Assembly: GCA_963665145.1 (NCBI GenBank)
Contig: OY762064.1
Coordinates: forward strand, 1,588,239-1,652,238
Direction of reading: 5' to 3'
Source of the DNA: Gammaproteobacteria bacterium
GTDB taxonomy: Bacteria; Pseudomonadota; Gammaproteobacteria; Steroidobacterales; Foliamicaceae
Length of the DNA stretch: 64,000 nucleotides
Part shown: piece by piece, positions 21,416 through 51,679 of the stretch
How the letters are laid out: the number at the start of each line of letters is the position of its first letter
How positions within the stretch are numbered: the first letter of the stretch is position 1
The notes under the pieces: model-generated
Databases searched by the model: none
Seen by the model: only the letters and a program-made list of their open reading frames with translations
Told to the model about the DNA's origin: nothing
Program-made: the position numbers and the translations under genes

Positions 21416-21685
21416 GCGCCGCCGCCGAACGGCGATTCCAACGCGGTCCCCTGGCCACCGCAAGCCCACACGCATTACGCTTGACGTAAGCCTCCTGCGC
21501 CGCTGACGAGCGGCGCTTCGCCGGCCCGCAATCCCCGCACGCCGAGGCGGCGCTCATGGGCGATTTTCGCCGCCTGCCGGCCTTGCGCCACGGAGAGCAG
21601 AGTCTGGCCGGGAGCCGGGCGGCGTGCGGCGCTCCGGGAGAGGGGCGCAGCCGCCGTTCCCTTTCACCGGACCCGGAGGAGCACC

Positions 21686-22012
21686 ATGCAGGCGGCACTC
21701 GCACCGCGCGGCGACGCGCGCACCTATCTCACTCACTTTGTCGGCGACGGCCTGGAAGACGACCGGTACGTCGTGGAGACGTACCGATCCCTCGCCAATG
21801 GCGAGATTATTCCCGTCCATGCCGACGGTTCCAGGCCCAGGGGCCGACGCAAGGCGCTGGGCCGGATCCTGCCCTTGAAGGCCGTGGAGAAGCTGCGCCC
21901 GGCGCGCGACGAGATCATCATCGCGACCGGGGTGACGTTGCGCAATTGTGGGCTACAAAGGTGGGGTTGGCGCGCCCTGTCAATTTTCGTCGAGCGGCGC
22001 CAGAAGGGCTGA
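21686..22012 (+). CDS. conserved hypothetical protein (108 aa), module gene 1
   Basis: It has a paralogue at 47062..47388 of identical length, with the shared blocks MQAxLAPRGDARTxLTHFVG and LKAVEKLRPARDEIIIATG. GGAG lies upstream. Confidence 0.55.
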   Translation: MQAALAPRGDARTYLTHFVGDGLEDDRYVVETYRSLANGEIIPVHADGSRPRGRRKALGRILPLKAVEKLRPARDEIIIATGVTLRNCGLQRWGWRALSIFVERRQKG

Positions 22013-22096
22013 CGCACGCGCCCTGGGACGTCCTGCCGTCGCAGGGACGGCCGTACATCTCCCCGACCGATCGGTACTGCAATTGGAGGCGCCATC

Positions 22097-23107
22097 ATGC
22101 CCATCAGCGATCCCGATATCCGCAAGGCGAGCGACCGCGAGCGGTTCCGGAGGCGGATCGAACAGCGCAAGGCGCTGGGATTGTGTCCCCGCTGTGGAGT
22201 CCGGCCTCCGGCTTCCGGGCTGAGCCTGTGCGATCCCTGTTCCGAAAAGCGCAGGGCCTCGGAGCGGGCCCGCGACGCCCGGAGGCGGGCCGCCGGCATC
22301 CAGCGCCCCCGCAACGTCGCCGCCGAACGGGCGAGAGACCGGCAGCGGACCGCCGAGCGGATCGCGCGGGGGGTCTGCACGAAGTGCGGCGCCTGCCGGC
22401 CCGAGCCCGGCCGCCGGCTGTGCGAGGCGTGTTCAGAAAAGCGCCGCGAGTACGACCGCACCCGATACGCCGAAGCTCGCGACCGGGGGGAACTCTACGG
22501 CGGCAAGAACCCTGAGGCCAAACGCAAGGCCGGGCGGGCCGCCAGCGCCCGGCGCCGTCGTAACCGGATCGCCGCCGGGCGCTGCACGCGCTGCGGACAG
22601 GGGTCCGCGCCGGAGGGGAGCACAGTCTGCGTATCTTGTCTCGAAGCCCGCCGGGTCGCGGAGCGGGAACGATACCGCGCCCGCCGCGCCAAGGGCCTTT
22701 GCGTGATCTGCGGGCAGACGGCCTTTGCGGGCGAGGCCCGCTGCGGGGTCTGCGCTACCGTCGAGCGCGAGCGGCGCGACAGGAGCACCAAGAACGCCCG
22801 CAGCCGGCAGCGGTATTGGGAACGGCGGGCCGCCCACCGCTGCACGGACTGCAACCAGCCGAGCTTCGGGGCATCGAGGTGTCCAGAGTGCGCGAAGCGC
22901 TCGTACGAGCGCTCCGATCACGTGCGCGGGATGCCGGTGTATCCGCCGAGCTTCGCCGTGATCCTCGTCGAGACCGAGGAGTGTCTGGCGACTTTCGACG
23001 ACGAGATGGACGCGGCCGCGTTCATCGCGTTCGAGAACCTGTCCAGGCACGAGGTTGAGGTGGTCCGCGACGCCCACCCGCTTGCGACCCTCGTCGGCTG
23101 GGAATGA
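22097..23107 (+). CDS. five-fold tandem zinc-ribbon (CxxC-N-CxxC) repeat protein, module gene 2
   Basis: 336 aa. The five units are CPRCG..CDPC, CTKCG..CEAC, CTRCG..CVSC, CVICG..CGVC and CTDCN..CPEC, each followed by an Arg-rich helix. A paralogue lies at 47474..48490. Confidence 0.6.
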   Translation: MPISDPDIRKASDRERFRRRIEQRKALGLCPRCGVRPPASGLSLCDPCSEKRRASERARDARRRAAGIQRPRNVAAERARDRQRTAERIARGVCTKCGACRPEPGRRLCEACSEKRREYDRTRYAEARDRGELYGGKNPEAKRKAGRAASARRRRNRIAAGRCTRCGQGSAPEGSTVCVSCLEARRVAERERYRARRAKGLCVICGQTAFAGEARCGVCATVERERRDRSTKNARSRQRYWERRAAHRCTDCNQPSFGASRCPECAKRSYERSDHVRGMPVYPPSFAVILVETEECLATFDDEMDAAAFIAFENLSRHEVEVVRDAHPLATLVGWE

Positions 23108-23236
23108 CGCGGCCGGCCCGGCACAGTCCGCGCCGCCGTGCGCGGTTTAAGACGTCTGGCCGTCCCGCCGCCCGCAGCGGTCGCCTTGCTCCACGCGGAT
23201 ACGGATGGCCGACCAGCCGGGTGCAGGCGCAGGAAC

Positions 23237-23437
23237 ATGCCGATGATGTTCGATACTCTGCCGGCCGAGGTCGATTTTGTGTGGGTCGCCAAGTCCCTGC
23301 CCGGGGGCGTACTGCATCGCATCGCCACCGCTGCCGAGGGCCTGGACTGTTCCATCCGCGCCGCGATGATCGCGGTGATCCTCAGCAATGCGCTATGCCT
23401 CGGCGACCGCCTGGGCTTCAGGCTCGGCCAATGCTGA
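23237..23437 (+). CDS. possible small protein (66 aa) present only in module copy 1
   Basis: Internal ATG of ORF 23138..23437. Third-position GC bias looks coding. It lies in a roughly 490-bp segment absent from copy 2. No family was recognised. Confidence 0.3.
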   Translation: MPMMFDTLPAEVDFVWVAKSLPGGVLHRIATAAEGLDCSIRAAMIAVILSNALCLGDRLGFRLGQC

Positions 23438-23640
23438 GACGCCGGGGTGGTGCTGGCCGCCCGGGGGCGGCACCAGCCTGGGCGGTGACCGTTGCCGCGA
23501 ACGGAATCGCCGGCGGCCGGCTGACCCGTAGCGTCTCCTACCTGCCGCTGGCGTTGCCGCCGCATTTCCTTCTCCGCGCGGCGCGGGCAATCCCGCCCTC
23601 GGTCCCACGCCGCCACTGTCCCCGGAGGGCGAGTTTCGCG

Positions 23641-23679
23641 CGTGCCGGGCGAACGCCCGGAAGAGGAGAGGGAGAAGGG
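23641..23679 (+). promoter_or_regulatory. conserved leader element A (GC hairpin CCGGGCGAACGCCCGG + polypurine AGAGGAGAGGGAGAAGGG)
   Basis: The same element recurs at 48537-48575 and in part at 49465-49495. Each copy ends 37-39 nt before the ATG of a small ORF. Confidence 0.35.
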
Positions 23680-23718
23680 CTCCCCCCGTCCCGGGCGCGA
23701 TCACCAAAGGAGACTTGC

Positions 23719-23895
23719 ATGTACGCACCCGACACCGACTACGACCCCATCCCCGCAGACACCGGGCAATTGCTGAGCGACCTCGGCATTGACATCAACG
23801 CCGTGCGCGAGACCCTCGCCGACGACGTGGCGCGGTACTGTCCCGACCGCGAGGTCGCCGAGACCGGGAGTTGGAGGGAAGCCAGAGAAGGATGA
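23719..23895 (+). CDS. conserved small protein (58 aa), module gene 3
   Basis: AAAGGAGA lies before the ATG at 23719. The paralogue at 48613..48789 shares PDTDYDPIPAxTGQLLxDLGIDxNAVRETLADD...SWREAREG. Confidence 0.5.
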   Translation: MYAPDTDYDPIPADTGQLLSDLGIDINAVRETLADDVARYCPDREVAETGSWREAREG

Positions 23896-23975
23896 ACGGA
23901 CGAGGGGCCGGAGAGAGACTCCGGTTCCCGGCCGTTCGCATACCCATCACATCAATTAGCAGAAGGAGAATCAAC

Positions 23976-24437
23976 ATGAGCTTTGGACTCAACCGCGCAG
24001 AAGTCATCGGCCGCCTCGGCGCCGACGTAACCGTCAATCACCTGACCTCGGGGGGCCGTGTCGCAAATCTCAGCATCGCCACCGACGAGAGCTACCTCGA
24101 TCGCACTTCCGGCGAGCGCGTCGACCGCACCGAGTGGCACCGTGCCGTGACGTTCCAACCTGGGCTGGTGGACATGCTGGTCAAGAACGCCAGGAAGGGC
24201 CGGCTGGTCTATGTCGCGGGCAAGATGCAGACCCGTCGCTGGCGCAAGGAGGGAGAAGACTCCGACCGGTTCTCGACCGAGATCCTGCTGGTCCCCGGTT
24301 CCCGGATCCAGTTCCTGGATCGGCCGGGTACCGTCAACGGCAACGGCGCGCAGGCCGCGCCCGAGGCGGCGGCTACAGATTCGGCCGGGACGGACGGCGG
24401 CGACGCCGATCCGAACATGAACCAGATCCCGTTTTGA
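23976..24437 (+). CDS. ssb: single-stranded DNA-binding protein
   Basis: GAAGGAGA lies before the ATG at 23976. OB-fold signature: NRAEVIGRLGADV..., TEWHRAVTF, QTRRWRKEGEDSDRFSTEI. It has a Gly/Ala-rich tail ending in the acidic tip ..DPNMNQIPF. Confidence 0.85.
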   Translation: MSFGLNRAEVIGRLGADVTVNHLTSGGRVANLSIATDESYLDRTSGERVDRTEWHRAVTFQPGLVDMLVKNARKGRLVYVAGKMQTRRWRKEGEDSDRFSTEILLVPGSRIQFLDRPGTVNGNGAQAAPEAAATDSAGTDGGDADPNMNQIPF

Positions 24438-24463
24438 GGCTGCGCCTCTCCCGTCCCCGGAAA

Positions 24464-24496
24464 GGGCTGGTGTTTCGTCACCAGCCCTTTTCTTTT
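24464..24496 (+). terminator. Rho-independent terminator after ssb copy 1
   Basis: GGGCTGGTG-tttcgt-CACCAGCCC is a perfect 9-bp stem followed by TTTTCTTTT. Confidence 0.75.
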
Positions 24497-24791
24497 GTAG
24501 CGGAACAGGAGTCCTTCCACTCCGGAACTGCAAGTGCCCCTCGCCAGCGCGGTGCCAGCGGAACCGGCCAGGGGAGGCTGTGCCCAGCCCAAACAATAGC
24601 TCCTCCCGTCTCATGCCCATCGTCCCACACGGGCTCACTGCGCCAACCCCTTACGGGGTCCTCCACTTCGTTGCGGCCGCTTCGCGGTGACTCCGTTGCG
24701 CGCGCGTGAACCAATAGGCATAAGCCGGGATGCGCTTCCGGCGATAAGGGCCAATCGGCTTAACTCTCAACTTCATCAAGGAGACACTCTG

Positions 24792-25718
24792 ATGTTCGAT
24801 ATCGATTCCATGCACACCCAACAAGCACAATCCCCCACCGCAGTGATCTGCGAGAACGCGGCGCTCTACGGAGTCACGCCCGAACGCGATGAGTTCGACC
24901 CCAGGGACATCTGGGACCGCGACGAGGCCGTAACGGCGATCGGCGAAGCGTTCCGCATCCTCGCAGAGAACGTCACACCGGACGGCGTCCAGCTCGCCGA
25001 CGAACGAGAACACCTGCTCTGGGGGTTCGTGAACACCCTCAACGCCCAGGTGAGAAGACTCGACCGCCGCATCGATAAACTCACGCCCAAAATGCGCGAC
25101 CTGCAGAACGCGCAGGACGGCTCCGAAGTCAAGGCCCGCGAACTCGAACTCACCACCGACCGCGCACGCCACCTCGGCGACCGCCGCGACGCGTTCGAGA
25201 CCCTGCGGGATACAGTGGCCGAACAGTACCGCAACGCGACCGGCAGCACCTGGCGTCCGCGGCGCGGCAGCCACACCAGCCAGACCCGCAAGCTCACCTC
25301 GGCGGCGATCGACGCCCGCGACTTCCAGCGCGCACGCAAGGACCGCGAGATGCAGGCGCACCTGCCCGAGGGCACCCTGATCGCCGTCACCGGCGGCAAG
25401 CACCTCAAGGACTGCAACGCCGTCGCCCGCAGCCTGGAGAAGGTCCGCGCCAAGTACAACGACATGGTGCTGGTGCATGGCGGCGGCCCCGGCGTCGAGA
25501 AGATCGCTGCTCAGTGGGCCGAACGCAACGAAGTGCACCAGATCGTGTGCAAGCCGGACTGGAACCGTCACGGACGGGCCGCACCGTTCCGCCGCAACGA
25601 CGAGCTGCTGAATCTCCTGCCGAAGGGCGTCATTGCTTTCCCCGGCAGTGGGATTACCGACAACCTCATCGACAAGGCCGAGTCATTGGGCATCCCGGTG
25701 ATGCGGGCCGCTGCGTAG
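24792..25718 (+). CDS. fusion protein: N-terminal helical/coiled-coil domain + C-terminal DUF2493 (SLOG/YspA-like) domain, module gene 5
   Basis: ATG 24792. The C-terminal 110 aa (LVHGGGPGVEKIAAQWAERNEVHQIVCKPDWNRHGRAAPFRRNDELL..VIAFPGSGITDNLIDKA) match my memory of DUF2493 proteins of ICEs. A paralogue lies at 50049..50966. Confidence 0.7.
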   Translation: MFDIDSMHTQQAQSPTAVICENAALYGVTPERDEFDPRDIWDRDEAVTAIGEAFRILAENVTPDGVQLADEREHLLWGFVNTLNAQVRRLDRRIDKLTPKMRDLQNAQDGSEVKARELELTTDRARHLGDRRDAFETLRDTVAEQYRNATGSTWRPRRGSHTSQTRKLTSAAIDARDFQRARKDREMQAHLPEGTLIAVTGGKHLKDCNAVARSLEKVRAKYNDMVLVHGGGPGVEKIAAQWAERNEVHQIVCKPDWNRHGRAAPFRRNDELLNLLPKGVIAFPGSGITDNLIDKAESLGIPVMRAAA

Positions 25719-26513
25719 CAGCCAGCGCGGCAACGGGTCGCGTCGTTCCACCGGCGCGGCCCGTTCCGTTCCTTCGACACGAACCGCTACGGTGGCGCGA
25801 TCAACGCCGCGCCGACGACCTGCAATGCCCGCTGCGCGTGGCCCTGCACTTGCGCCATCAGTTCGTGCCGTGCCCGCCGTCACCGCGTCGGCCTCGCTCG
25901 TCCTCGCCGGCTGCGCCGGCATCGGCCATCGCCTCGGCGCATTGCCGATGCGCTTCGTGCGGATGCCGGCGCCGGCTTCGCCGTGCACCGGATCGCGCAC
26001 GTTCCTCCGCACAGGTGCGGACGGCAGTGACGGTCCCGGTGCGCACCGGCCTGTGCACCTCGCCATGCACTCGTGTCCGGCCAAGTGCACACGCCATCGC
26101 TGCCTGGCCGTGCACCGCCTTCGGCGTCACGGCCAGCGAGACTGAGACGGCCAGTGCGGCCGGCCCGCCGTTCTCGCCAGCCCGCAACGCGGAATCCGCC
26201 GCAGATATCCTGAAAGTGTCTGGTAATACGCGGTGAGCGGGACGTACTACACCGTACTACGCCCCGGTTCTCCAGAGAACCGCCGATGCTCCCAGAGCAT
26301 CATTGCCGCCTTGCCCGCGCTGGAGACGCCACGTCCGCTTCCTGGATTGAAACCCGGATCCGAGCGCCGGTTCGCGGCCCGAAGCCCAAATAGGCTCCGC
26401 CCTATCCCGACTGCTCAAGCGCCGCTTGGGCTAAACCGTTGAGTCACAACGGCTTCCCATTTCCATCGGTTGAACTTCTCCCTTGAATCCCCTCTCGACG
26501 GCGGAGCCGGATC

Positions 26514-26531
26514 ACCGTCACACCCCACGCA
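26514..26531 (+). repeat. 18-bp exact direct repeat ACCGTCACACCCCACGCA (left copy)
   Basis: The identical 18-mer occurs at 51680-51697. The flanks diverge on both sides apart from a short CGGAG 4-5 nt upstream. Confidence 0.9.
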
Positions 26532-26721
26532 CCGATGGTGCAGTGAGCGAGACCCCACGGGCCTGCGCTCTTCGGAAGATTTCCGTTATATGTCAGCAGG
26601 ATAGACCGAGTTCGGCCTATCGCCGCGATCCGCCGCGCGGGGCGCGTTGCCTGTTCAAAGCCGCCGTTTTGTTCCCTTGAGACGAACGGCGCCCGAGGAA
26701 ACAGACAACGGAGACACGCTC

Positions 26722-27861
26722 ATGCACATTCAAGCCACTATCAACGAGCGGACGCTTCGCCGTACATTCCGGGAGAAAAAACCCGGACGGTACGGCCTGA
26801 TCGTCATCGACCGGGACCTGCCCGCCTTCGGTTTCACGGTCGCAAAGAACGGAACAAAGACCTTCTTCGTCCGAGCTCCACGCCCGGTCGGCGCACCGAA
26901 AACCATCCTCGGCACGGCCGACGACATAACCGCCGCCGAGGCCCGCGAGATGGCCGTCGCCACCATCGCGCCCGCCAAGGCCGAGCGCGAGACCGGCCCG
27001 CGGTTCGCCGACTTCGTCGACGAGTTCATGCGCCGCCAGGCGCGGCTCTGGAAGCCGTCCACCCGCCAGTGCAACCGCCACCTGCTCGACCGCTACCTCC
27101 TGCCGTTCTTCGGCGCGATGCCTGTCGCAAAGATCGGCCGCGCCGATGTGCGCCGCTGGTTCGATTCCCTGAGCGCCACGCCCGCCAGCGCCAACCGGGC
27201 CCTGCCGGTGCTGTCGGTGATGATGCGCCAGGCGGAACTGTGGGATTTCCGGCCCCAGGGCTCCAATCCCTGCCGCAACATGCACCGCTACAAGACCGCG
27301 CCGCGCGAGCGGTTCCTTTCGGTCGAGGAACTCAAGCGCCTCGGGTTCGTGCTCGACCATGCCGATGACAGTCAGGCAGCCGCCGCGATCCGGCTGCTGC
27401 TGTTCACCGGCGCGCGGTTGTCGGAAATCACGGCGCTGCGGTGGGACTGGATACGCGGCACTCGCGCGGTGCTCCCGGACTCCAAGACCGGGCCGAAAGC
27501 GATCCAGCTTCCGCCGCCCGCCAGGGCGGTGCTGAACGCTCTGCCGCGTGACAGTGAATATGTGTTCCCGAATCCGGCGGGCGACGCTCCCATGAAGAAC
27601 CTCGGGTACCGCTGGTTGAAGCTGCGCGATCTCACCGGACTGGACGATGTGCGCATCCACGACTGCCGGCATACGTTCGCCTCCCACGCCGTCATGAGCG
27701 GCCTCGACCTCTATACCGTCGGAAGGCTGCTGGGTCACGCCGACATCGCCTCGACCGAGCGTTACGCCCATCTGGCCGACGAGCACATCCGCGCCGCGGC
27801 GGGGCGCATCTCCGGCATCGTCCACGGGGCCATGACCGGCAGCGCCAAGGAGGGAAAATGA
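26722..27861 (+). CDS. tyrosine integrase 3
   Basis: ATG 26722 after AACGGAGA. Motifs: LFTGARLSE, HDCRHTFASH, LGHADIASTERYAHL. Confidence 0.9.
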   Translation: MHIQATINERTLRRTFREKKPGRYGLIVIDRDLPAFGFTVAKNGTKTFFVRAPRPVGAPKTILGTADDITAAEAREMAVATIAPAKAERETGPRFADFVDEFMRRQARLWKPSTRQCNRHLLDRYLLPFFGAMPVAKIGRADVRRWFDSLSATPASANRALPVLSVMMRQAELWDFRPQGSNPCRNMHRYKTAPRERFLSVEELKRLGFVLDHADDSQAAAAIRLLLFTGARLSEITALRWDWIRGTRAVLPDSKTGPKAIQLPPPARAVLNALPRDSEYVFPNPAGDAPMKNLGYRWLKLRDLTGLDDVRIHDCRHTFASHAVMSGLDLYTVGRLLGHADIASTERYAHLADEHIRAAAGRISGIVHGAMTGSAKEGK

Positions 27862-30725: not shown

Positions 30726-30760
30726 CGAGCTGGAGGCATCATCCAGTAGCCGAGGCACCA

Positions 30761-41353: not shown

Positions 41354-41354
41354 T

Positions 41355-42821: not shown

Positions 42822-43904
42822 ATGAACAACCCCTATAGTCCCGAACAGAAAAAGTGGCTTAATGATCTTCAGGAACATTACCGATCCGTGACCAACGGCA
42901 TCTGCATGGCAACTATCCGGCTTGGTGGCGAAAGTTCCACGGAGCCATGCGAAGGTCCAATTGGACGCCGTCACGCAATCGCGAAGAGGCACCTGAAACT
43001 GATTGCGGAATGCAATGCCCAAATTCGAGCCATTAGGGAGACTGGGACATTTGCGAAATGGCCGGAGCGGGAAGATGATCTTCGACTTGTGCCTATCAGT
43101 CGGTTCAGCGCGGGCCGGTGGTCCTGCCAGAGGCACGACGAGAGGTTCGGGGGCATCGACGCACAAGAGATTGATCTCTCGGAACCCGAGAATTTGTTTA
43201 AGGCGGTCTACCGTGTAGTCCTACGCCAAAACCATCTAATGCTGGCCCGCTGGAATGCGTTTTTCGGCATGACCCAAACCGCGGAAGGATGGAATCTTTT
43301 CAAGGAAACAGCATTCGAGAGGACGTTAAGCGACGAAGAAGCGACCAAGGCGGAAGCCGCATGGAGGGATGAAACACACGCGGTCATGAGGAAGATGCGC
43401 GATCTTGAACGGCGATTGAGGCTACAAGATTGGAACTCCCTTGAATTCCGCGCGCTCCTGGTGGCATCCAATCCCAAAGCGGCGGGATGGGGTTGTCTCA
43501 TGATGAAGTTTGACTTGAGCGGTTTGCGCGCCGATGATCCACGAAGACATTGGGACCACCATATCGAATTAGGCTACATTATTGTGATTCCTCAACAAGA
43601 GGGACATGCCATCATCACCGCCTGTGAGCCAGAAACTCAATTTCGCGTACCAGAGATCGTAAAAATTCACAGATTTATGCCGGTGCGCACGAACCCCAAC
43701 GAACCGCACACGGCTGAAGCACTTTTGAAGCGCGGGCTTTCGCAAAGGATCTGGGAACTCAACGAAATTGGCATGTGCGAATCACTCTATCAATCCTGGT
43801 CGGATGCAGAACGAAACGAAGTTAAGGCCTGGATGAAGAAAAGGGGATCGCGCCAACCCACGCTGTTGAAACAGGCTTTGAATTCTCTTCCTAGTTTTCT
43901 CTGA
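42822..43904 (+). CDS. orphan hypothetical protein (360 aa), visibly lower GC
   Basis: A clean ORF preceded by a roughly 520-bp AT-richer spacer. His/Cys-containing N-terminal blocks (GRRHAIAKRHLKLI, WSCQRHDERFGGID). I could not assign a family. Confidence 0.5.
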   Translation: MNNPYSPEQKKWLNDLQEHYRSVTNGICMATIRLGGESSTEPCEGPIGRRHAIAKRHLKLIAECNAQIRAIRETGTFAKWPEREDDLRLVPISRFSAGRWSCQRHDERFGGIDAQEIDLSEPENLFKAVYRVVLRQNHLMLARWNAFFGMTQTAEGWNLFKETAFERTLSDEEATKAEAAWRDETHAVMRKMRDLERRLRLQDWNSLEFRALLVASNPKAAGWGCLMMKFDLSGLRADDPRRHWDHHIELGYIIVIPQQEGHAIITACEPETQFRVPEIVKIHRFMPVRTNPNEPHTAEALLKRGLSQRIWELNEIGMCESLYQSWSDAERNEVKAWMKKRGSRQPTLLKQALNSLPSFL

Positions 43905-44030
43905 CCTAATCGCGCGAGAAATTTTGTTCGCCAACTTCGCGCAGAACCCCATGCACCGCCCAAGGACGCGCTGGAAATCCTCCGCTACTTGGGGCAGCCA
44001 TTACATGACTGTGCACTTGTCCATCACAGC

Positions 44031-45623
44031 CTACGGTGCAACCTTCTCGAAGAGATTCGCCTGTTCCTCATCGCGCGGCAAATCCACCTCGGGCATCAGC
44101 TTCGCGACCGCTTCGGCCGGTACATTCCCGAGCTCCTTCGGCTCCAGCTTGTGTAATCCACCGCCGTAAACACGTCCCTCCCCAAGCATCGCCTTAGGAC
44201 AAATCTGATTCAGAATCTTCCACATTTGCCGTCTCAGTTCCGGCCGAGCTACCAGAGCCTGATGTAGCGGCCTCGATGGGTATAGCATCAAGTACACGTT
44301 CGCCGCTGTTGCCCGTGAATTATTCAATATGAAGCGGAAAGATCGCCCATTCTTCTTGTCGCTTCGGCCGAGATAGGTGCAGACGAAAGGTGCCGGGGGC
44401 CGGTTTTCCTGCATGTACCAGCGCTTTCGATGGCGACAGATGTAGCGATCTGCAATTCCCTCTTGCTTACCCTCCTCTAAATACGCCCACAAATTCGGAA
44501 AGCGATTCTTGATTTCCTCTTCGGCCCACGGTGGATCTAGCAGAAACAATCGGCGCTCCAGCACCGGATTACCGCTCCGATCACCCTTGACTTCATCCTC
44601 TGTCAAATAGCGTGGACTCGGCAGGATCGGTTTGAAGGCTTCCATCGGAAGTCCGCGGCGAGCAATCTCCTGCGACGACAGGATGAAGTAACGGTTATTG
44701 CCAGTAGCCAAACCCCGCTTGATCTTGAAGAAGTCGCCGAGTACTGGCCCATTGTTTTTCTCGTGCCTTTCCTTCGCCGGATAGCGTGTCCATTTTGGAT
44801 CGTGGCGCAATGTCTGCGCTGGTATTAGCCGCTCCAGCTTCGGTCGTTCCAACGTGCCACCATAGCTGAATCGCACTTGGTGATCTTCTTTCGGAGCCTG
44901 GTTGCGGAACCAGACTACTGCGGACGACACAAGTGCGTCACCGAACTGCACATCGTTGGGGTCGAAGCGATGAATGTGGAGAAGCGTCACCCTGTTCAGC
45001 AGGTAGTGCTTCACGGCGACACCGTAATTCACGTCCATGAACTCGCTCGGGATCAACCACCCCGCCAATCCGCCTTCCGCCATCCACGGGTGGCTCAAAC
45101 CCAAAAAATAGCAGTAGAGCCCTGCAAGCCCGTTGATCTCCACGCCGCAGGAATTCAGCGTCTCTTGCCTCAACCGTTTCTTCTCGACATTGACAATATG
45201 GTGATGCCGAACATAGGGCGGATTACAGATGACAAGGTTGAACCTGTCCCCAGCCTTCGGCACCTCAGACCGGGTAAAGTCCATTAGGCGGAGATCAAGC
45301 CCGGTGTTCCCCCATAGTCTTGCCGCTGGCCGACCGTAATGCGGGTCGATTTCGTAGCCCACGGCAGAGCGAATACAAGTCTGTGGAAACACGCTCAGCA
45401 ATGCGGAATAGAACGAGCCCGTTCCAAAGGCCGGGTCCATAAACCTTATGTCCTCGTTCGCTCCGAGTTGCCTCTGCGCATATCGCTGTATATCCGCAGC
45501 CAGCCCGGACGGTGTCGCAAATTGACCCATACGGTTGCGCATCTGTACGTCTCGACCTGTGTCCAGATCACGTTGCAATGCGATCCGCCGAGCTTCCAAG
45601 TCTGTAACTGTTGCCCTATTCAC
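44031..45623 (-). CDS. N6-adenine DNA methyltransferase (gamma class, Eco57I/TaqI-like catalytic domain + target-recognition domain)
   Basis: 530 aa. Motif I is FMDPAFGTGSF and motif IV is VICNPPYVRHH. Confidence 0.85.
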   Translation of the reverse strand: MNRATVTDLEARRIALQRDLDTGRDVQMRNRMGQFATPSGLAADIQRYAQRQLGANEDIRFMDPAFGTGSFYSALLSVFPQTCIRSAVGYEIDPHYGRPAARLWGNTGLDLRLMDFTRSEVPKAGDRFNLVICNPPYVRHHHIVNVEKKRLRQETLNSCGVEINGLAGLYCYFLGLSHPWMAEGGLAGWLIPSEFMDVNYGVAVKHYLLNRVTLLHIHRFDPNDVQFGDALVSSAVVWFRNQAPKEDHQVRFSYGGTLERPKLERLIPAQTLRHDPKWTRYPAKERHEKNNGPVLGDFFKIKRGLATGNNRYFILSSQEIARRGLPMEAFKPILPSPRYLTEDEVKGDRSGNPVLERRLFLLDPPWAEEEIKNRFPNLWAYLEEGKQEGIADRYICRHRKRWYMQENRPPAPFVCTYLGRSDKKNGRSFRFILNNSRATAANVYLMLYPSRPLHQALVARPELRRQMWKILNQICPKAMLGEGRVYGGGLHKLEPKELGNVPAEAVAKLMPEVDLPRDEEQANLFEKVAP

Positions 45624-46586
45624 CTACAATCCAAACTCCGCGAAATCGTGGATGCGGTGCTCCCAAACCCAGTCGATACCTTCCGCCGCCTCGTAACCGA
45701 GATAGCCGCTGTCGAAATACCCGCACAGGAATAATACGAAGCGCACATTGTTACCGTAGGTTCGGCGCAACTGGCTCATTTTCGCCGCTTCTTCCTTGCG
45801 TCTCTTGTTGACGTTTGTGAAGTCTCCTGCCGATTTTGCCTCGATAAGCAACGGCAGCTCACCAACCTTGGCGGTCTTGGCCATAACGACCGCGTCCACA
45901 GGGATATTGATGTTCTTGTCCGTTCCTTCCTGGGCGACGGGTACGTTGAGACGAAACGAGTATGTCCCAGGCTTCATCTCATCAAACTTCGTGCCTTCGC
46001 CGGAAGGAAGGTTCGTATACCCCAATGTCGCCAGCCATTCGCCAATGGCTTCGAGCTGACGCTTCTCCTGAGCATTGCGGATGATGGGATTCGCAACGGC
46101 TCCGCACAAACGATCAGCCACGATCGTCGCAGCTCTATACAGCTCCTTTTCGGACGGTTCGTTGCGGCGCTCCAACCACACGAAGACATCGGGATCGGCC
46201 ATCGTCTCGATTATCTTCCCCATCTTTTCTAAGTCTATGTCCAGTTTGTTCCTCGGCATCCGTGGCGGCATCCTGTCGTACTTCTCCATCGACTTGACCA
46301 AGTTCCCCGAGACCCCGGCAAGACCAATCAGCCGGTCTACGGCCAACGGCGGACAAGTGGACATCCGCAAGGTAGGCAACACCGAGGGTTTCGTCTTTAG
46401 CAGTTCTGGCCCTACGTTGGTCAGGTTCTTGGTCGCCTTCAGCGTCGCCTCGACATCCTCTGTGGTCTTTACTCGCGTCGCCCGGTATGCCTCCGGTGCA
46501 AATCGCATGAACCAGTCGTTGTACATATCCACCGACAGCGCAATGTCTTCCTTCCACCGATCCGGTTTATCCCTGTTGGCAGCCAT
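45624..46586 (-). CDS. type II restriction endonuclease, XamI-like
   Basis: About 320 aa, abutting the methyltransferase gene with no gap. The N-terminal block KPDRWKEDIALSVDMYNDWFMRFAPEAY resembles what I recall of the XamI (RE_XamI) family; this assignment is from memory only. Start is ATG 46586 or GTG 46589. Confidence 0.6.
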   Translation of the reverse strand: MAANRDKPDRWKEDIALSVDMYNDWFMRFAPEAYRATRVKTTEDVEATLKATKNLTNVGPELLKTKPSVLPTLRMSTCPPLAVDRLIGLAGVSGNLVKSMEKYDRMPPRMPRNKLDIDLEKMGKIIETMADPDVFVWLERRNEPSEKELYRAATIVADRLCGAVANPIIRNAQEKRQLEAIGEWLATLGYTNLPSGEGTKFDEMKPGTYSFRLNVPVAQEGTDKNINIPVDAVVMAKTAKVGELPLLIEAKSAGDFTNVNKRRKEEAAKMSQLRRTYGNNVRFVLFLCGYFDSGYLGYEAAEGIDWVWEHRIHDFAEFGL

Positions 46587-46774
46587 CACTTGCGCTTCTT
46601 TGTCTGCACGTCCCGACTAGCCTGCCGGCAAAGATCCCAAACTTCCACGAATAGGCCGTTCAGCCGCACGTTCCGCATTGCTGCTTCTTTATTGAAATCA
46701 ACGGCCGTCTGCCTAGTTAGCCGGATTCCAATTACCTGTGTCGATTGGCCCTTTTTCCATCCGACTGCTCACTA
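46586..46774 (-). CDS. possible small ribbon-helix-helix controller-like ORF upstream of the restriction gene; no canonical start for the full domain
   Basis: The minus-frame translation ..QVIGIRLTRQTAVDFNKEAAMRNVRLNGLFVEVWDLCRQ.. has an RHH beta-strand and helix pattern, and its stop overlaps the REase ATG by 1 nt. The only ATG (46678) would give 30 aa. Confidence 0.25.
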
Positions 46775-47061
46775 TCGTTCTTGGTGTAGGCATTGTTTGT
46801 CGACAAGTCGAAAGATGTCAAGCGTTTTCGGTGGACTCGTTCGAACACATTGCCAATCCACACAACCTACTGCCACCGGTGATTATTTTCTTACGCTAAT
46901 CCGATCATCCGCAAGGCCGTCACGTCCCCTGCCGTAAATGCCGCCTTTTCGTCCCCTGCACAGCCCGAAGAGAGCGAGTCCGGCCGGTAGCGGGGCGGCG
47001 GGCGGCGCTCCGGGGGGCGCTGCCGCCGTTCCCTTTCCCCTGACACAAGGAGCACGGCACG

Positions 47062-47388
47062 ATGCAGGCGACACTCGCACCGCGCGGCGACGCGCGCACT
47101 TTTCTCACCCATTTCGTCGGCAGCGGTCTTGTTGACGACCGCTATGTCATCCAGCGGTACCGGTCCCAGGCGGACGGCGACATTGTTCCTGTCGACGCCA
47201 ATGGCGCCAGACCGAAGGGCCGGCACCGACCCCGCCCAACCATCGCCTCGCTGAAGGCGGTCGAAAAGCTGCGCCCGGCCCGCGACGAGATCATCATCGC
47301 GACGGGGATCAAGCTGCGCAATTGTGGAGTACAGATCTGGGGCTGGAGAAGTCTGGGTCTTTTCGTCGAGCGCCGCCAGAAGGGCTGA
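47062..47388 (+). CDS. conserved hypothetical protein (108 aa), module gene 1 copy 2
   Basis: Paralogue of 21686..22012 with the same length. Confidence 0.55.
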   Translation: MQATLAPRGDARTFLTHFVGSGLVDDRYVIQRYRSQADGDIVPVDANGARPKGRHRPRPTIASLKAVEKLRPARDEIIIATGIKLRNCGVQIWGWRSLGLFVERRQKG

Positions 47389-47473
47389 CCGGCACGCACC
47401 TGGGACGTGCCGCCGGCCCGCTGCCGGGGGGGCGTCCTGCCGTCCCGACTTCCACAGCTTCCGGAGACGCCAT

Positions 47474-48490
47474 ATGCCCTACAAGGATCCTGAGCGCCGG
47501 GCGCGCGACCGCGAGCGGATCGCACAGCGCACTGCCGAGCGTCTCGCCGCCGGCCTTTGTCCCAAGTGTGGTCAACGCCCACCCCAACCCGGGCGGCGTA
47601 ACTGCGCGCCCTGTGCCGAGAGGGCCCGTGCCGCCGGCCGTGCACGGGATGCACGATTGCGCGCCGCCGGCCAACCGCGGCGGAACAGGGAGCGGGCTCG
47701 CGCGTACGAGCGGGGGCGGGTCCGCCGGCAGGCCGCCGACCGTATCGCCCGGGGCGTCTGCACCAAGTGCGGGACAGAGCGTGCCGAGTCCGGCCTCCGC
47801 CTTTGCGCGCCCTGTGCTGAGAAACGCCGCGCATGGGACCGGGCCCGATACCGGGCGGGCAAAGCCGCCGGCGCGCTTTATGGCGGAGCCAATGTCGATG
47901 CAAAGCGCCGCATCGCCCGCATCGCCAGCGCGAAACGCCGCAACGCGCGCGTCGAAGCCGGCCTGTGCCGACGCTGCGGCCGCCAGCCTCCCGTCGAAGG
48001 CGGCGCCACCTGCGCGCCGTGCCGGGAGACCCGGCAGGCGGCGGAGCGCGCACTGTACGCATCCCGGAAGGCCGCCGGCCTTTGCACCCGCTGCGGGGGA
48101 CCGACAACCGACAGCGTTCCCCAGTGCGCGCCCTGCATCGTGCTCGAAGCCGAGCGCCGCCGGCCCGAGCACAAGAACGCCCGGAGCCGGCAACGGTACT
48201 GGGAACGGAGGGCGGCCAGCCGCTGCACGGACTGCAATGCGCCGAGCTTTGGAGCCTCGCGATGCCCCACGTGCGCCGAACGCTCGTACGAGCGCTCCGA
48301 CTTCTTCCGCGGCATCCCCGTGTGGGATCCCAGTTATACGGTGATCGAACTTGCCACGGGGGAGACTCACGGCCCGTTCGATTCCGAAGCCGAAGCCGTC
48401 GCCGAGCTGGCCTTCGCCGGCCTTTCGTTCGACGAGGTCGAGATCGTCAACGACGCGCCGGTCACGGCGCGGCTGACCGGCTGGGCCTGA
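47474..48490 (+). CDS. five-fold tandem zinc-ribbon repeat protein, copy 2
   Basis: ATG 47474 (MPYKDPERRARDRERIAQR..). The five CxxC..CxxC units are CPKCG/CAPC, CTKCG/CAPC, CRRCG/CAPC, CTRCG/CAPC and CTDCN/CPTC. Confidence 0.6.
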   Translation: MPYKDPERRARDRERIAQRTAERLAAGLCPKCGQRPPQPGRRNCAPCAERARAAGRARDARLRAAGQPRRNRERARAYERGRVRRQAADRIARGVCTKCGTERAESGLRLCAPCAEKRRAWDRARYRAGKAAGALYGGANVDAKRRIARIASAKRRNARVEAGLCRRCGRQPPVEGGATCAPCRETRQAAERALYASRKAAGLCTRCGGPTTDSVPQCAPCIVLEAERRRPEHKNARSRQRYWERRAASRCTDCNAPSFGASRCPTCAERSYERSDFFRGIPVWDPSYTVIELATGETHGPFDSEAEAVAELAFAGLSFDEVEIVNDAPVTARLTGWA

Positions 48491-48536
48491 GCGGTCCTCA
48501 TTCGTCGGGCGGGGGGTCCTGAGTTCGAGGATAGCG

Positions 48537-48575
48537 CGTGCCGGGCGAACGCCCGGGAGAGGAGAGGGAGAAGGG
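48537..48575 (+). promoter_or_regulatory. conserved leader element B (hairpin + polypurine tract)
   Basis: Near-identical to 23641-23679. It ends 37 nt before ATG 48613. Confidence 0.35.
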
Positions 48576-48612
48576 CTCCCCGTCCCGGGCGGACCCACGA
48601 AGGAGGTATCCC

Positions 48613-48789
48613 ATGTTCACACCCGACACCGACTACGACCCCATCCCCGCAGCCACCGGCCAATTGCTGAACGACCTCGGCATTGACGTAAACGCCGTGC
48701 GAGAGACTCTCGCCGACGACCGGGCCCGGCGCTGTCCCGAACACGAGGTCCGGGAAATCGAGAGTTGGAGGGAAGCAAGAGAAGGATGA
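48613..48789 (+). CDS. conserved small protein (58 aa), copy 2
   Basis: GAAGGAGG lies before the ATG. Paralogue of 23719..23895. Confidence 0.5.
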   Translation: MFTPDTDYDPIPAATGQLLNDLGIDVNAVRETLADDRARRCPEHEVREIESWREAREG

Positions 48790-48870
48790 GCGGACGAGGG
48801 TCCGGAGAGAGACTCCGGTTCCCGGCCGTTCGCCCACCCATCGTCATTACGTAGCAGAAGGAGAATCAAC

Positions 48871-49329
48871 ATGAGTTTTGGATTGAATCGCGCGGAAGTC
48901 ATCGGCCGCCTTGGCGCTGACGTCACGGTCAACCACCTGGTATCGGGGGGCCGTGTGGCCAACCTCAGCATCGCCACCGACGAGTCGTACATCGACAAAG
49001 GCGGCGAGCGCGTCGACAAGACCGAGTGGCACCGCATCGTTACCTTCCAGCCCGGGCTGGTGGACATGCTGGTCAAGAACGCGAGGAAGGGCCGGCTAGT
49101 CTACGTCGCGGGCAAGCTGCAGACGCGGCGCTGGCGCAAGGACGGCGAGGACGCCGACCGATTCTCGACCGAGATCCTCCTGGCGCCCGGTTCGCGGGTC
49201 CAGTTCCTGGACCGACCGAACGGCAATAGTGCGGCGACCGAAGCCGGCGAGCCGGCCAACGGTTCCGCCATGCCGGCGGACGCCACGGCGCAGGCGGACG
49301 GCAGGCAGGGCGATCAGATCCCCTTCTGA
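48871..49329 (+). CDS. ssb: single-stranded DNA-binding protein, copy 2
   Basis: 152 aa. The OB-fold region is nearly identical by eye to copy 1, and the C-terminal tip is ..GDQIPF. Confidence 0.85.
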   Translation: MSFGLNRAEVIGRLGADVTVNHLVSGGRVANLSIATDESYIDKGGERVDKTEWHRIVTFQPGLVDMLVKNARKGRLVYVAGKLQTRRWRKDGEDADRFSTEILLAPGSRVQFLDRPNGNSAATEAGEPANGSAMPADATAQADGRQGDQIPF

Positions 49330-49352
49330 TCTCGCTTCCGCTTACGCCCGAA

Positions 49353-49385
49353 GGGGGCCGGTGCTTCGTCGCCGGTCCCCTTTTT
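49353..49385 (+). terminator. Rho-independent terminator after ssb copy 2
   Basis: GGGGGCCGGTG-cttcgt-CGCCGGTCCCC is an 11-bp stem with two G-U pairs, followed by TTTTT. Confidence 0.7.
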
Positions 49386-49464
49386 CATGCAGGCGGCTTC
49401 GAGCCCGCACCGCACCGTTCGGGATTCGCAACCGTCTATGCGGGGGAGGAGGAGAGTAGCTCGG

Positions 49465-49495
49465 CCACGGCGAACCGCGCGGAGAGGAGAGGGAG
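49465..49495 (+). promoter_or_regulatory. conserved leader element C (partial hairpin + AGAGGAGAGGGAG)
   Basis: A third copy of the polypurine leader. It ends 37 nt before ATG 49533. Confidence 0.3.
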
Positions 49496-49532
49496 TACCG
49501 CCGCGCCCGCATCGGACCACCGGGAGAAACCC

Positions 49533-49760
49533 ATGAGCGACGTCACCTTCAAGCGGGCCGGCCCGCACGAATCCCGCATCTACACAGACGGCGACTGCAT
49601 CGGCGACATCTATCGCATGGACGACATCCTCCGCCCGGGTGTGCATGTCTACGTCATTCACTTGTTCGAGGACTGGCGGGGACCGAAGCGCGTCCACGAC
49701 CGGCGGCGCATCCGCGAGGTGGCCCAGCACCTGCTCGATACGCACCCGTTCTACGGGTAA
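49533..49760 (+). CDS. small hypothetical protein (75 aa) present only in module copy 2
   Basis: It is preceded by the same leader element as the 58-aa genes. No family was recognised. Confidence 0.4.
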   Translation: MSDVTFKRAGPHESRIYTDGDCIGDIYRMDDILRPGVHVYVIHLFEDWRGPKRVHDRRRIREVAQHLLDTHPFYG

Positions 49761-50048
49761 CCGGAGTGGAATAAAGCGTTGCGTTCCAGATCGGCAGCGC
49801 CAGCCTGCTGCGCACTGGGTTTGCGGGAAGAGAACGGGGTCGTGAAACCAAAAAGCTCCTCCCGACATAGGCCCATTGTCACACACGTGCTCACTGCGCC
49901 AACCCCTTCGGGGTCCTCCACTGTGTTCCGGCCGCTTCGCGGTGACTCCGCTGCGCGCGCGTGAGACAACAAACCTATGTCGGGAAACGCTCTTCCGGCA
50001 ATGCGGGCCATCGGGCCCAACTCTCAACTTCGTTAAGGAGACACTCTA

Positions 50049-50966
50049 ATGTTCAATTACGACACCCATCAAGCCATCTCCCCCACCGCCGTCATCTGCG
50101 AGAACGCCGCGCTCTACGGCGCAAAGCCCGAACGAGGCGAGCACGACCCCAGGGCCATCTGGGACCGCGACGGCGCCATAGACGCTGCGACGCAGGCGTT
50201 CGCGATCCTGGCCGAGGGCATCGCCCCCGACGGGGTGCAGCTGGCCGACGAACGAGAGAGCCTGCTCTGGGGCATCGTCAACGCCTTCGACGCCCAGGTG
50301 AGAAGGCTCGACCGCAGCGTCGATAAGCTCATCCCCCAACTGCGCGACCTCGAACGCGCCCAGGACGGCACCGAGATCAACGCCCGAGAGTTGGAACTGC
50401 GCACCGAGCGCGCGCAACACCTCGGGGACCGGCGCGACGCCTTCGAGGCAATGCGCGACGCGCTGGCCGAGCAGTACCGCGACAACACGGGCAGCACCTG
50501 GCGCCCGCGGCGCGGCAGCCACGTCAGCCACACCGGCAAGCTGACCTCCGCGGCGATCGACGCCCGCGACTTCCGCCGCGCGAAGAAGGACCGCGAGATG
50601 AACGCGCACCTGCCCGACGGCACGCTGGTCGCCATCACCGGCGGCAAGACCGTCACGGACTGCGACGCCGTCAACCGCAGCCTCGACCGCGTCCGCGCCA
50701 AGTACCGTGACATGGTGCTGGTGCACGGCGGCGGACCCGGCGTGGAGAAGATCGCCGCGCAGTGGGCCGAACGCAACGAAGTGCACCAGGTCGTGTGCAA
50801 GCCGGACTGGAACCGTCACGGACGGGCCGCACCGTTCCGCCGCAACGACGAGCTGCTCAATCTCCTGCCCAAGGGCGTCATCGCCTTCCCCGGCTCAGGC
50901 ATCACCGACAACCTCATCGACAAGGCCACCTCACTCGGCATCCCCGTCCAGAAGATCGCGGCGTAG
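50049..50966 (+). CDS. N-terminal helical domain + DUF2493 (SLOG-like) fusion, copy 2
   Basis: 305 aa. Paralogue of 24792..25718 with a near-identical C-terminal domain. Confidence 0.7.
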   Translation: MFNYDTHQAISPTAVICENAALYGAKPERGEHDPRAIWDRDGAIDAATQAFAILAEGIAPDGVQLADERESLLWGIVNAFDAQVRRLDRSVDKLIPQLRDLERAQDGTEINARELELRTERAQHLGDRRDAFEAMRDALAEQYRDNTGSTWRPRRGSHVSHTGKLTSAAIDARDFRRAKKDREMNAHLPDGTLVAITGGKTVTDCDAVNRSLDRVRAKYRDMVLVHGGGPGVEKIAAQWAERNEVHQVVCKPDWNRHGRAAPFRRNDELLNLLPKGVIAFPGSGITDNLIDKATSLGIPVQKIAA

Positions 50967-51679
50967 TCCGCGACCCGCCAACGGGCCGCGCCGACCCGCT
51001 TGGCGCGGCCCGTTCCTCGATCCCGTCACAATCCAGCAGGGCGGCGCCACGCCTCACGGGTCCATGCACTTCGCACATCACCTGTGACGGCTTCGCCGTT
51101 CACCTCCATCCGCAGTGCCATCCGCACTGGTGCCGCAAATGGTGTCGATCGTCCCGCGGACGCTGCCGCCGCCGCGTCCGCCCGTGGGCTTCGCACGACG
51201 GCCGGCACCTCCGTCGGCATTGCCTACTTCGGCCCGTGCAACCGCAATCGCGTCCTCGCGGCTGACGCCGCGGTAACGTGTGTGTCATAGACCTCTGCGC
51301 GTGCGGTAACAGGTGAACGCCGATATCTTCCCCAGCAACACCACCGCTGTCCACGTTCCCTGCTGCGCTGAGGGAACATGTGCAACGCGTCCACTGGGTG
51401 TGCGGAACATGTGAGACGAATCTTCTGCGCTGAGGGAACAATCCGGGTCCGCGCCCGCAACCGGTGCGCCCTGTGTGATGCACAGCACCGCGCCCTTCCG
51501 TTGCGCGCCCCGTTCTGTTACCTTGGCCCGCGAACGGCAACGCGGAACGTGCTCGATGATCGCGGTCCGGTCGTCTCGCTCAATCGCCGCGGCGGCTCCA
51601 AATCCTTGATTTGCCGGCGTTTCAGGCGGTGGTGGTGTGCAGGGCTCCTTTGCCCAATTTCGACTCCATTCGGAGTTTT

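Follow-up and report, generated by a model that had tools for sequence, protein, structure and literature searches.

The 64,000-nucleotide stretch analysed here (contig OY762064.1 of assembly GCA_963665145.1, forward-strand positions 1,588,239 to 1,652,238; hereafter the window) comes from a gammaproteobacterium of the Foliamicaceae and holds two diverged, directly repeated copies of a five-gene module. The module encodes a 108-residue protein (p108), a Zn-ribbon repeat protein (ZnR), a 58-residue protein (p58), an SSB and a DUF2493 protein of the YAcAr type. The comparisons presented below show the two copies to be, as far as can be read from sequence, the backbones of two related, independently acquired integrative elements, A and B, stacked head to tail. 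The duplication is genuine, and the accretion of two such elements, a known process, explains it best. We propose that the integrases of B joined it to A at a short core sequence at the end of A, and that the module serves entry as single-stranded DNA; taken as a whole, this account appears to us probable.

Two diverged copies of one module

Copy 1 occupies positions 21593-25767 and copy 2 positions 46970-51016, both on the plus strand, as delimited by blastn, Pfam and Ka/Ks comparison. Self-comparison by blastn yields three collinear matches, 21593-22940 with 46970-48323 (68.2% identity), 23622-24326 with 48518-49218 (85.0%) and 24595-25767 with 49851-51016 (81.3%), and a separate repeat search recovers the same pairs at 77-89%. 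An earlier note on this DNA had described a diverged, collinear, direct duplication whose likeness extends into the leaders, and both points are borne out: all five gene pairs are intact, and the non-coding leaders are 73-88% identical, which makes them no less conserved than synonymous sites in the genes on either side. The extents it gave (21480-25720 and 46880-50970) describe the two blocks correctly but not their left edges, since homology starts near 21590 and 46970; on the right it ends at 25767 and 51016.

The five gene pairs, all on the plus strand, differ considerably in their divergence. Between the copies, p108 (21686-22012 and 47062-47388) is 72% identical in amino acids (dS 0.83, dN/dS 0.23), ZnR (22097-23107 and 47474-48490) 55% (1.18 and 0.36), p58 (23719-23895 and 48613-48789) 79% (0.23 and 0.53), SSB (23976-24437 and 48871-49329) 84% (0.59 and 0.23) and YAcAr (24792-25718 and 50049-50966) 79% (0.43 and 0.36). 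The codon-based comparison finds all ten genes intact and under purifying selection. The copies are clearly non-identical, as had been noted by eye, at 68-85% in nucleotides and 55-84% in amino acids; the formal alignment with Ka/Ks that the same note recommended leaves collinearity in place and reveals no near-identity (dN/dS 0.23-0.53). The longest identical run is 67 bp (25543-25609 and 50791-50857), followed by runs of 33, 32 and 30 bp. Each copy also has about 520 extra bp with an optional open reading frame (ORF), a 99-residue one (p99, 23138-23437) in copy 1 only and a 75-residue one (p75, 49533-49760) in copy 2 only. Homology between the copies fades at 25767 and 51016, and an exact 18-mer is then shared once more, at 26514 and 51680.

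The proteins themselves are largely without known relatives. The SSB has a Pfam match at 1.4e-20 and ends in the canonical IPF tail, and Pfam places YAcAr in the SLOG (Smf/DprA-LOG) group. No match in NCBIfam or PHROG was obtained for p108, ZnR, p99, p58 or p75, and for p108, ZnR, p58 and p75 the Pfam, NCBIfam and PHROG searches gave no relative of known function. The AlphaFold2 model of p108 reaches a pLDDT of 62.7; Foldseek against the PDB finds nothing for it below E = 0.7, and a PDB profile search returns designed repeat proteins only. The ZnR model (pLDDT 87) consists of five helix - Zn knuckle - helix repeats and a small alpha/beta domain, and has no neighbour in PDB sequence and fold searches. 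ZnR of copy 1 is identical to P0121; exact-sequence look-ups found neither P0121 nor the two YAcAr proteins on record.

Two features of the leaders may be added. The motif GGCGAAC(G)CCCGG-AGAGGAGAGGGAG, a small perfect hairpin with a purine tract, lies upstream of p58 in both copies (23622-23685 and 48518-48581) and also upstream of the 75-residue ORF of copy 2 (49443-49506); its role may be regulatory, or that of a ribosome-binding leader common to these genes. Directly 3' of the SSB gene of copy 1, a strong intrinsic-terminator-like hairpin with a 14-bp stem and a T tract (24459-24492, plus strand) suggests that the YAcAr gene probably has its own transcription start in the leader that bears the long hairpin described below.

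Closer relatives in other genomes

Searches of GTDB species representatives (one genome per species) returned 180 relatives from several phyla, and 79 loci were fetched from these; loci are cited below by L numbers where they have to be told apart. Each copy resembles foreign modules more closely than it does its neighbour. Copy 1 and L003, L004 and L087 share 97% of p108, 92-95% of SSB and 95-97% of YAcAr in amino acids, and copy 2 shares 99.3% of SSB, 95.7% of YAcAr and 83.5% of ZnR with L008, from a Candidatus Foliamicus metagenome-assembled genome (MAG), also of the Gammaproteobacteria. In a sliding comparison L008 resembles copy 2 at 87-100% nucleotide identity in most 150-column segments and at 73-82% in five, and short patches, in the 5' part of p108 and in the p58 leader, are nearer copy 1. 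This mosaic indicates that module lineages exchange segments, that is, that homologous events take place over evolutionary time.

Duplication of the 4-kb block in place, followed by long divergence and a later insertion of integrases and cargo between the copies, would also leave copies that are direct, collinear and diverged, and the earlier note had entertained an ancient event of this kind. Since foreign relatives are closer than the neighbouring copy (94-99% in amino acids, against 55-84% between the copies), such an origin is unsupported. It is further contradicted by dS values that differ five-fold between genes (0.23-1.18), by the fact that copy 2 belongs to a unit that has an integrase pair of its own and is flanked by perfect att-like repeats, and by equivalent stacking in unrelated genomes, and we give it almost no weight. 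The other option of the note, two related elements acquired separately, is the one upheld by the closer foreign modules and by the unit of copy 2, with its own integrases and 18-bp repeats.

The core sequence as the site of accretion

The 18-mer ACCGTCACACCCCACGCA occurs exactly twice in the window, on the plus strand at 26514-26531 and 51680-51697; no further copy is present at up to three mismatches, and none of 100 shuffled sequences contained two matches. The first copy, the left or attL-like junction of B, leads into the dyad GCACC-gat-GGTGC, and the second, the right or attR-like junction, into GCAG-ttcct-CTGC. Bracketed by the two cores are integrase pair B, the defence cargo and module 2, so that element B extends from 26514 to 51679 (25,166 bp counting one core), while element A comprises integrase pair A directly before module 1. 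To the left of the cores about 130 nt are weakly alike; to the right the sequences are unrelated.

B sits at a conserved core that follows the YAcAr gene of A at a distance of about 0.8 kb. In about 30 loci the core sequence CACACCCCACGCA is found at no more than one mismatch, nearly always 0.4-0.9 kb past the YAcAr stop codon. The last three bases of the core open a short dyad with covarying arms (GCAG/CTGC, GCATC/GATGC, GCACC/GGTGC), present in 20 of 29 distinct core instances against a mean of 0.9 in shuffled sequences. When loci are compared with the window, 12 cease to match the spacer 3' of the module at 51697/51698 and eight others begin to match the side of the ribbon-helix-helix (RHH) gene at 51677-51684, which makes the core the family-wide point at which left and right partners reassort.

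Evidence for insertion comes from L087, a contig from a related sample, whose YAcAr is 97% identical in amino acids to that of copy 1. It matches window positions 26425-26531 almost base for base up to the core and then runs on like 51698-51810, thus presenting spacer, core and the sequence upstream of the RHH gene without an insert. It belongs to another strain and is a homologue of the uninterrupted target; its arrangement shows B to be an insertion at the core between a resident YAcAr gene and its RHH gene (51977-52390). The two junctions themselves recur in other assemblies. L088, an independent metagenome contig, is collinear with 22658-29305 at 88% nucleotide identity through a module 1-like module, the core and an intB pair; collinearity ends at 29305, and beyond the pair L088 carries a different cargo (type I restriction-modification, HEC-05-like, PDC-S23). 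L008 matches 51039-52117 across the junction of module 2, core and RHH gene. A clean single element is found in L059, where core, intB pair, cargo, module and core follow one another between housekeeping genes.

These contigs also bear on the possibility that two strains or genomes were misjoined, in assembly or binning, through a shared module. The window seems to derive from a MAG, and repeats are classic points of misassembly, but at 68-85% identity and with no shared run above 67 bp the copies diverge too far for an assembler to mistake one for the other; one junction is reproduced in L088, which at 88% is independent, and the other in L008, and the junctions lie exactly on the 18-bp repeat. 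We therefore see hardly any chance of an artefact, and the same evidence supports the view of the earlier note that neither an artefact nor a recent duplication is involved. The 18-mer alone is not diagnostic, as 11 of its 25 exact matches in public metagenome contigs (loci L095-L110) have no family genes nearby and look like chance.

The core could alternatively be the nick site of a transfer origin (oriT) rather than an integrase attachment site, B having entered by relaxase-mediated oriT-oriT recombination, a reaction that relaxases such as TrwC catalyse. This would fit the location of the core, which precedes by about 300 nt a NikA-like RHH gene that has three palindromes, the short inverted repeat adjoining a highly conserved stretch, as in oriTs, and the persistence of the core without a nearby integrase in L087 and L008. 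However, the integrase pair, where present, always lies about 120-200 nt from the core, and in five loci homology of the arms upstream of intB1-type genes begins exactly at the core, which is the usual attP-int layout. In L059, moreover, the unit running from core and integrases to module and core has no RHH gene, and no relaxase was found in the window. An oriT in place of an attachment site is accordingly improbable, although the two roles of the core are not mutually exclusive.

Integrases and defence cargo

Both elements carry a pair of adjacent tyrosine recombinase genes on the plus strand. In pair A, intA1 (19034-20206; Pfam Phage_integrase 1e-25, Arm-DNA-bind_3 6e-11) was taken to start at the ATG at 19034, within a longest ORF from 18875, and is followed by intA2 (20210-21415), which is 51% identical to it (Pfam, alignment); homology among intA-type arms starts near 18860. 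Pair B, identified by Pfam, begins about 190 nt after core 1 with intB1 (26722-27861; longest ORF from 26647), which intB2 (27858-29297) overlaps by 4 nt; the homologue of intB1 at the equivalent position of L088 is 92% identical in amino acids. All four integrases have a P4-type arm-binding domain and the R..K..HxxR..H..Y catalytic signature, and they are 36-51% identical to one another. It can be hypothesised that IntB1 and IntB2 act together in the manner of XerC/XerD, and that the pair would recombine the core of a circular B with the identical core at the end of A. The same pair could re-excise B and thereby remove the defence genes.

The cargo of B (29421-46589; Pfam, PADLOC) opens with an Ssp phosphorothioate system, for which PADLOC finds all of SspA (29421-30608, minus strand, 1e-128), SspB (30761-31723, 2e-108), SspC (31606-35115, E = 0) and SspD (35112-35951, 5e-136) together. 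A gene for a 175-residue protein without assignment separates SspD from a DndB-like gene (36521-37792), after which come a PbeA-like helicase (37882-39540), a GHKL ATPase (39449-41353), a PLD-like nuclease (41235-42302), a further gene without assignment (42822-43904) and, on the minus strand, an Eco57I-like methylase (44031-45623) and a XamI endonuclease (45624-46589). No PADLOC model of an SspE or SspFGH restriction partner is matched, and the genes 3' of SspABCD match only the DndB, PbeA, MzaB and DrmC models; the stretch 29421-42302 may thus contain an unusual restriction partner of the phosphorothioate system. G+C content is 52-64% in this cargo versus 64-72% in the modules.

The earlier note had held that the interval between the copies contains all the defence genes and can be deleted by homologous recombination between them. 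The first part does not hold, as a PIN gene (18365-18796) precedes the interval, and a BsuBI/PstI endonuclease fragment (52440-52655) and an HsdR-like gene (61699-63381) come after it. The proposed deletion is plausible but secondary, since site-specific excision at the 18-bp cores would be a more direct route to the loss of the interval. The two integrase pairs, the att-like core, the RHH gene and the wider family had escaped the note.

A widespread element family

Module, core and an RHH gene recur in more than 80 MAG loci of several phyla. The 79 fetched loci come from MAGs labelled Alpha- and Gammaproteobacteria, Candidatus Binatia, Bryobacterales, Rhodothermales and Candidatus Palauibacter, and many of these genomes hold several copies; isolate labels such as RHO, Plut and MH-Pat suggest, from the names alone, sponge or coral projects. 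There are 242 homologues of p108, nearly all of exactly 108 residues, without a Pfam domain or any name beyond 'hypothetical protein', and 213 of ZnR, unnamed apart from a few such labels. By tblastn, more than 40 loci keep one order: p108, ZnR, (p99), p58, SSB, (p75), YAcAr, an interval of 0.7-1.3 kb and the RHH gene. Among copies within one genome, homology extends from 100-200 bp upstream of p108 to the core.

The position of the integrases varies. The pair lies 4-9 kb upstream of p108, with variable genes between, in L019, L045, L059, L066 and L079; directly 3' of the YAcAr gene, as in the window, in L016, L021, L056, L084 and L088; and 2.7 kb downstream of the YAcAr gene in L038. L016 and L015 are adjacent on one contig in a window-like layout, with p108 starts 24.1 kb apart versus 25.4 kb in the window. 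The assembled loci thereby show that the unit of integrase pair, cargo, module and core, and its stacking, recur in many MAGs. Across the family the cargo includes McrBC, type I restriction-modification, PIN/FitA, Cas3 (type I-C), AbiE, Dcm/Vsr, DruA and OLD, and 82 cargo ORFs from 71 loci match 143 PADLOC families (E <=1e-10), mostly restriction enzymes.

Some loci depart from this plan. In L010-L016, a single MAG lineage, the module is interrupted between the p99 slot and p58 by an additional 3-6 kb, a second cargo hotspot within the backbone. At positions 175-1150 of L087 the module adjoins a ribosomal protein S20 gene, with neither integrase nor cargo upstream within the 6.7-kb contig; its ZnR is P0128. 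P0128 and P0178 are both recorded on a contig equal in length (2,949,337 bp) to that of P0121, the ZnR of copy 1, so that the source genome likely contains at least a third module.

In the searchable literature the family, its paired integrases and the target site that it brings along appear to be undescribed: searches concerning tandem integrases or the defence elements of sponge symbionts retrieved no description of it, and one for DUF2493 retrieved unrelated papers only. With the whole module as query, no plasmid in the plasmid database carries it, and only the C-terminal part of YAcAr matches, at 64-67% nucleotide identity in 328 plasmids.

A putative module for single-stranded transfer

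Beyond the last core of the array lies a unit (51790-52390) of three evenly spaced palindromes, GTATGC-N5-GCATAC, at about 51790, 51846 and 51889, followed by the RHH gene (51977-52390, plus strand), whose product has a NikA-like Pfam match (1.3e-6). The palindromes are likely operator or relaxosome-type binding sites, and similar repeats are visible in related loci. In most loci the RHH gene follows the core by 300-450 nt, and its products fall into two sequence classes with a common IR(F/V)(S/T)..W..IE motif. The putative transfer origin consists of a gene with a NikA-like match (28.9 bits against a cut-off of 27), the three palindromes and a core with its dyad, and it has no match to a known oriT.

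The YAcAr leaders contain a long imperfect hairpin on the minus strand, at 24598-24736 in copy 1, between the SSB and YAcAr genes (single-sequence fold, alifold), and at 49854-49991 in copy 2 (inverted repeat, single-stranded DNA fold z = -3.15, alifold). About 140 nt long, it is common to both window copies and eleven relatives. In the alifold of these 13 sequences the minus strand reaches -43.5 kcal/mol with 46 pairs, nine of them compensatory, against -27.6 with 23 pairs and one compensatory for the plus strand, and the minus-strand structure has 114 G.T cells versus 7 cells in which the plus strand would pair as G.T, counts that are biased in favour of the structures since these were derived from the tested alignments themselves. 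A second leader subfamily of different sequence shows the same preference (-50.9 for minus versus -33.5 for plus), and the leader upstream of p58 a weaker one (-30.8 versus -21.2); the leaders upstream of p108, between p108 and ZnR and between p58 and SSB gave no convincing conserved fold. The module genes are all plus-strand genes directed toward the core and the RHH gene; the minus strand is their template. Full-length YAcAr homologues (43-46% in amino acids) are encoded on the Hyphomicrobiales plasmids L001 and L002, co-oriented with and several kb upstream of a mobC-relaxase pair.

Taken together, the hairpin, the SSB gene and the NikA-like RHH gene suggest transfer as single-stranded DNA. 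We propose that the module would act in establishment and DNA processing upon such entry, because it combines an SSB with an IPF tail, a SLOG-type YAcAr of the kind found upstream of mobC-relaxase in plasmids and a hairpin on the template strand, with a NikA-like RHH gene and palindromes by the core. Were the minus strand nicked near the core or the RHH region, a recipient would first receive the YAcAr gene, the hairpin and the SSB gene, as in plasmid leading regions. As neither relaxase nor mating-pore genes are present, the element would depend on a helper conjugative system.

The module could instead serve a phage satellite-like island as its core for replication or hijacking; such an island, P4-like or similar to phage-inducible chromosomal islands, would spread in capsids rather than by conjugation. 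P4-like satellites are small and have a conserved backbone with defence-cargo hotspots, features shared by the present elements, whose integrases are of the P4 type with Arm-DNA-bind_3 and which carry an SSB gene. Yet no primase, helicase, capsid, terminase-small or packaging-redirect family was found, p108, ZnR, p58 and p75 lack a PHROG match, the only wider homologue, YAcAr, occurs on conjugative plasmids next to mobC-relaxase, and the RHH protein matches NikA/MobA-type models. We judge spread in capsids to be distinctly unlikely as an explanation of the module; that the hairpin is an antisense RNA or a priming site, or that the life style is of the satellite type, is possible.

Several observations weigh against accretion at the core and against single-stranded entry. 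The Pfam scans covered 70 window ORFs, including nearly all those of at least 200 residues in likely coding frames, and found no relaxase, mating-pore or type IV secretion domain among them. The RHH gene lies outside the core-delimited B, so that an excised B would lack it. Taken alone, the hairpin of copy 1 is unexceptional (z = -1.7). No sigma-70-like -35/-10 hexamers were seen on either strand of 21400-26700 and 46800-52100, with a consensus that may not be that of the hosts, and no known anti-restriction or SOS-inhibition family of the ardA, psiB or klcA type was found in the module by Pfam, NCBIfam or PHROG. For element A no att repeat was detected: upstream of intA1 there is no B-type core (at up to three mismatches) and no direct repeat of at least 12 nt shared with other parts of the window, so that any order of arrival, like the outer bounds of the array, is provisional. 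Finally, a scan of metagenome contigs for the core retrieved neither an excised circle nor an exact empty site of B.

Comparison with known systems

Site-specific tandem accretion of integrative elements is known from streptococci, where cis-mobilisable elements accrete with integrative and conjugative elements (CIME-ICE), and from SXT/R391 arrays. In those systems, as proposed here, the integrase of an incoming element recombines with an att site beside a resident relative, which leaves direct repeats of related backbones separated by att copies, and homologous exchange gives rise to hybrids. The present elements differ in targeting a conserved site that terminates their own backbone and lies between the YAcAr and RHH genes, rather than a host tRNA or housekeeping gene, and in having two paralogous integrases per unit, a cargo consisting mostly of defence genes and hosts in several phyla.

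The leading regions of conjugative plasmids such as F (Frpo) and ColIb-P9 contain ssb genes and single-strand promoters or ssi sites. The module resembles them in its SSB gene, in the orientation of its genes toward a presumed origin and in the long imperfect template-strand hairpin of a leader; it differs in the absence of -35/-10 hexamers and of ardA-, psiB- or klcA-type genes, and in belonging to an integrated element rather than to a plasmid. On the Hyphomicrobiales plasmids (L001, pUSP2 of Aminobacter; L002, Methylocystis) a block of the order ParB - strawberry-notch - toprim - DUF2493 ... ParA - MobC - relaxase likewise includes a full-length YAcAr/DUF2493 protein (308 versus about 313 residues, 43-46% over the whole length) transcribed toward a mobC-type gene. 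However, p108, ZnR and p58 are absent from it, and ParB, Sbno, toprim and relaxase are absent from the window.

Elements with several recombinases include those with XerC/XerD pairs, the recombinase-in-trio elements and the strand-biased circularizing elements. These share with the present family neighbouring, paralogous tyrosine recombinases whose catalytic residues are intact and which presumably form a hetero-complex. Here, in contrast to the recombinase-in-trio and strand-biased circularizing elements, there are two genes per set and not three; both proteins have P4-type arm-binding N-termini, and the ends are direct core repeats instead of terminal inverted repeats.

Genomic islands with an oriT that lack relaxase and mating-pore genes (iOriT, or hitchers among integrative mobilisable elements) have been described (Ares-Arroyo et al, 2026, bioRxiv 10.64898/2026.01.13.699239). 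These islands are also integrase-bearing, have defence genes near the presumed transfer origin and form large cross-species families. By comparison, the putative origin of the present family is confined to the NikA-like RHH gene, the palindromes and the conserved core, and the family is not among the nosocomial species treated there.

Neighbouring genes in the window

Positions 1-18000 are occupied by housekeeping genes (UvrD, TrkAH, TRAP transporter, MacB/HlyD, ABC transporters, M20 peptidase; Pfam). The order thereafter is PIN, integrase pair A, module 1, integrase pair B, SspABCD with its partners, Eco57I-like methylase, XamI, module 2 and RHH, followed by restriction-enzyme remnants, insertion sequence (IS) elements and the HsdR-like gene. 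The PIN-domain toxin gene (18365-18796, minus strand) sits at the island's left edge, immediately ahead of integrase pair A, and has a small ORF upstream (region 18100-18796); PIN/FitA pairs also precede modules in L006 and L007. The fragment 3' of the RHH gene (52440-52655, minus strand) is the C-terminal part of a BsuBI/PstI-type restriction endonuclease, a family that also neighbours the RHH gene in L003. It is followed by an IS5-like transposase gene (52958-53857) and by fragments of IS110- and Mutator-family transposases (56499-58693).

The HsdR-like gene (61699-63381, minus strand) is 82-84% identical in nucleotides to HsdR cargo just 5' of modules in L006/L022, L040 and L055, which indicates that the island runs on to the end of the window with cargo common to family members. 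By analogy with the HsdR-PIN-FitA-p108 order of L006, a third module just past the window end was considered; this was dropped, because the final 160 nt of the window align with another context in L008. Neither the window nor 21 of the 22 scanned related loci contain a tRNA or tmRNA target; the exception, L086, has three tRNA genes 9-12 kb upstream of its core. Rfam at gathering thresholds yields no family in the window.

Implications for defence islands

In practical terms, the duplication is not an artefact but a real product of known element accretion. The family offers four conserved proteins without a functional assignment, namely p108, the five-fold Zn-ribbon protein, p58 and p75. It also offers a recombination system in which two integrases share a short, defined site, and a DNA hairpin with strand bias, a candidate single-strand promoter or priming element.

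A wider reading may be put forward tentatively. The module, a core of 13-18 nt and the integrase pair would define an undescribed self-targeting integrative family across phyla (Alpha- and Gammaproteobacteria, Candidatus Binatia, Acidobacteriota, Gemmatimonadota, Rhodothermales). Its members would swap anti-phage systems, stack at the cores of resident relatives and, lacking a relaxase, move as single-stranded DNA through foreign conjugation machinery, the hairpin strand being the template. We consider this conceivable but somewhat doubtful. If true, it would represent a vehicle that moves whole defence systems (Ssp, restriction-modification, McrBC, CRISPR-Cas3, AbiE) between distantly related bacteria living together, and defence islands would be built by stacking at a self-carried site rather than at a host gene. 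It would then provide a mechanistic account of the clustering of defence genes and of the rapid turnover of islands, in which a single integrase-mediated excision would mean the loss of 25 kb of immunity.

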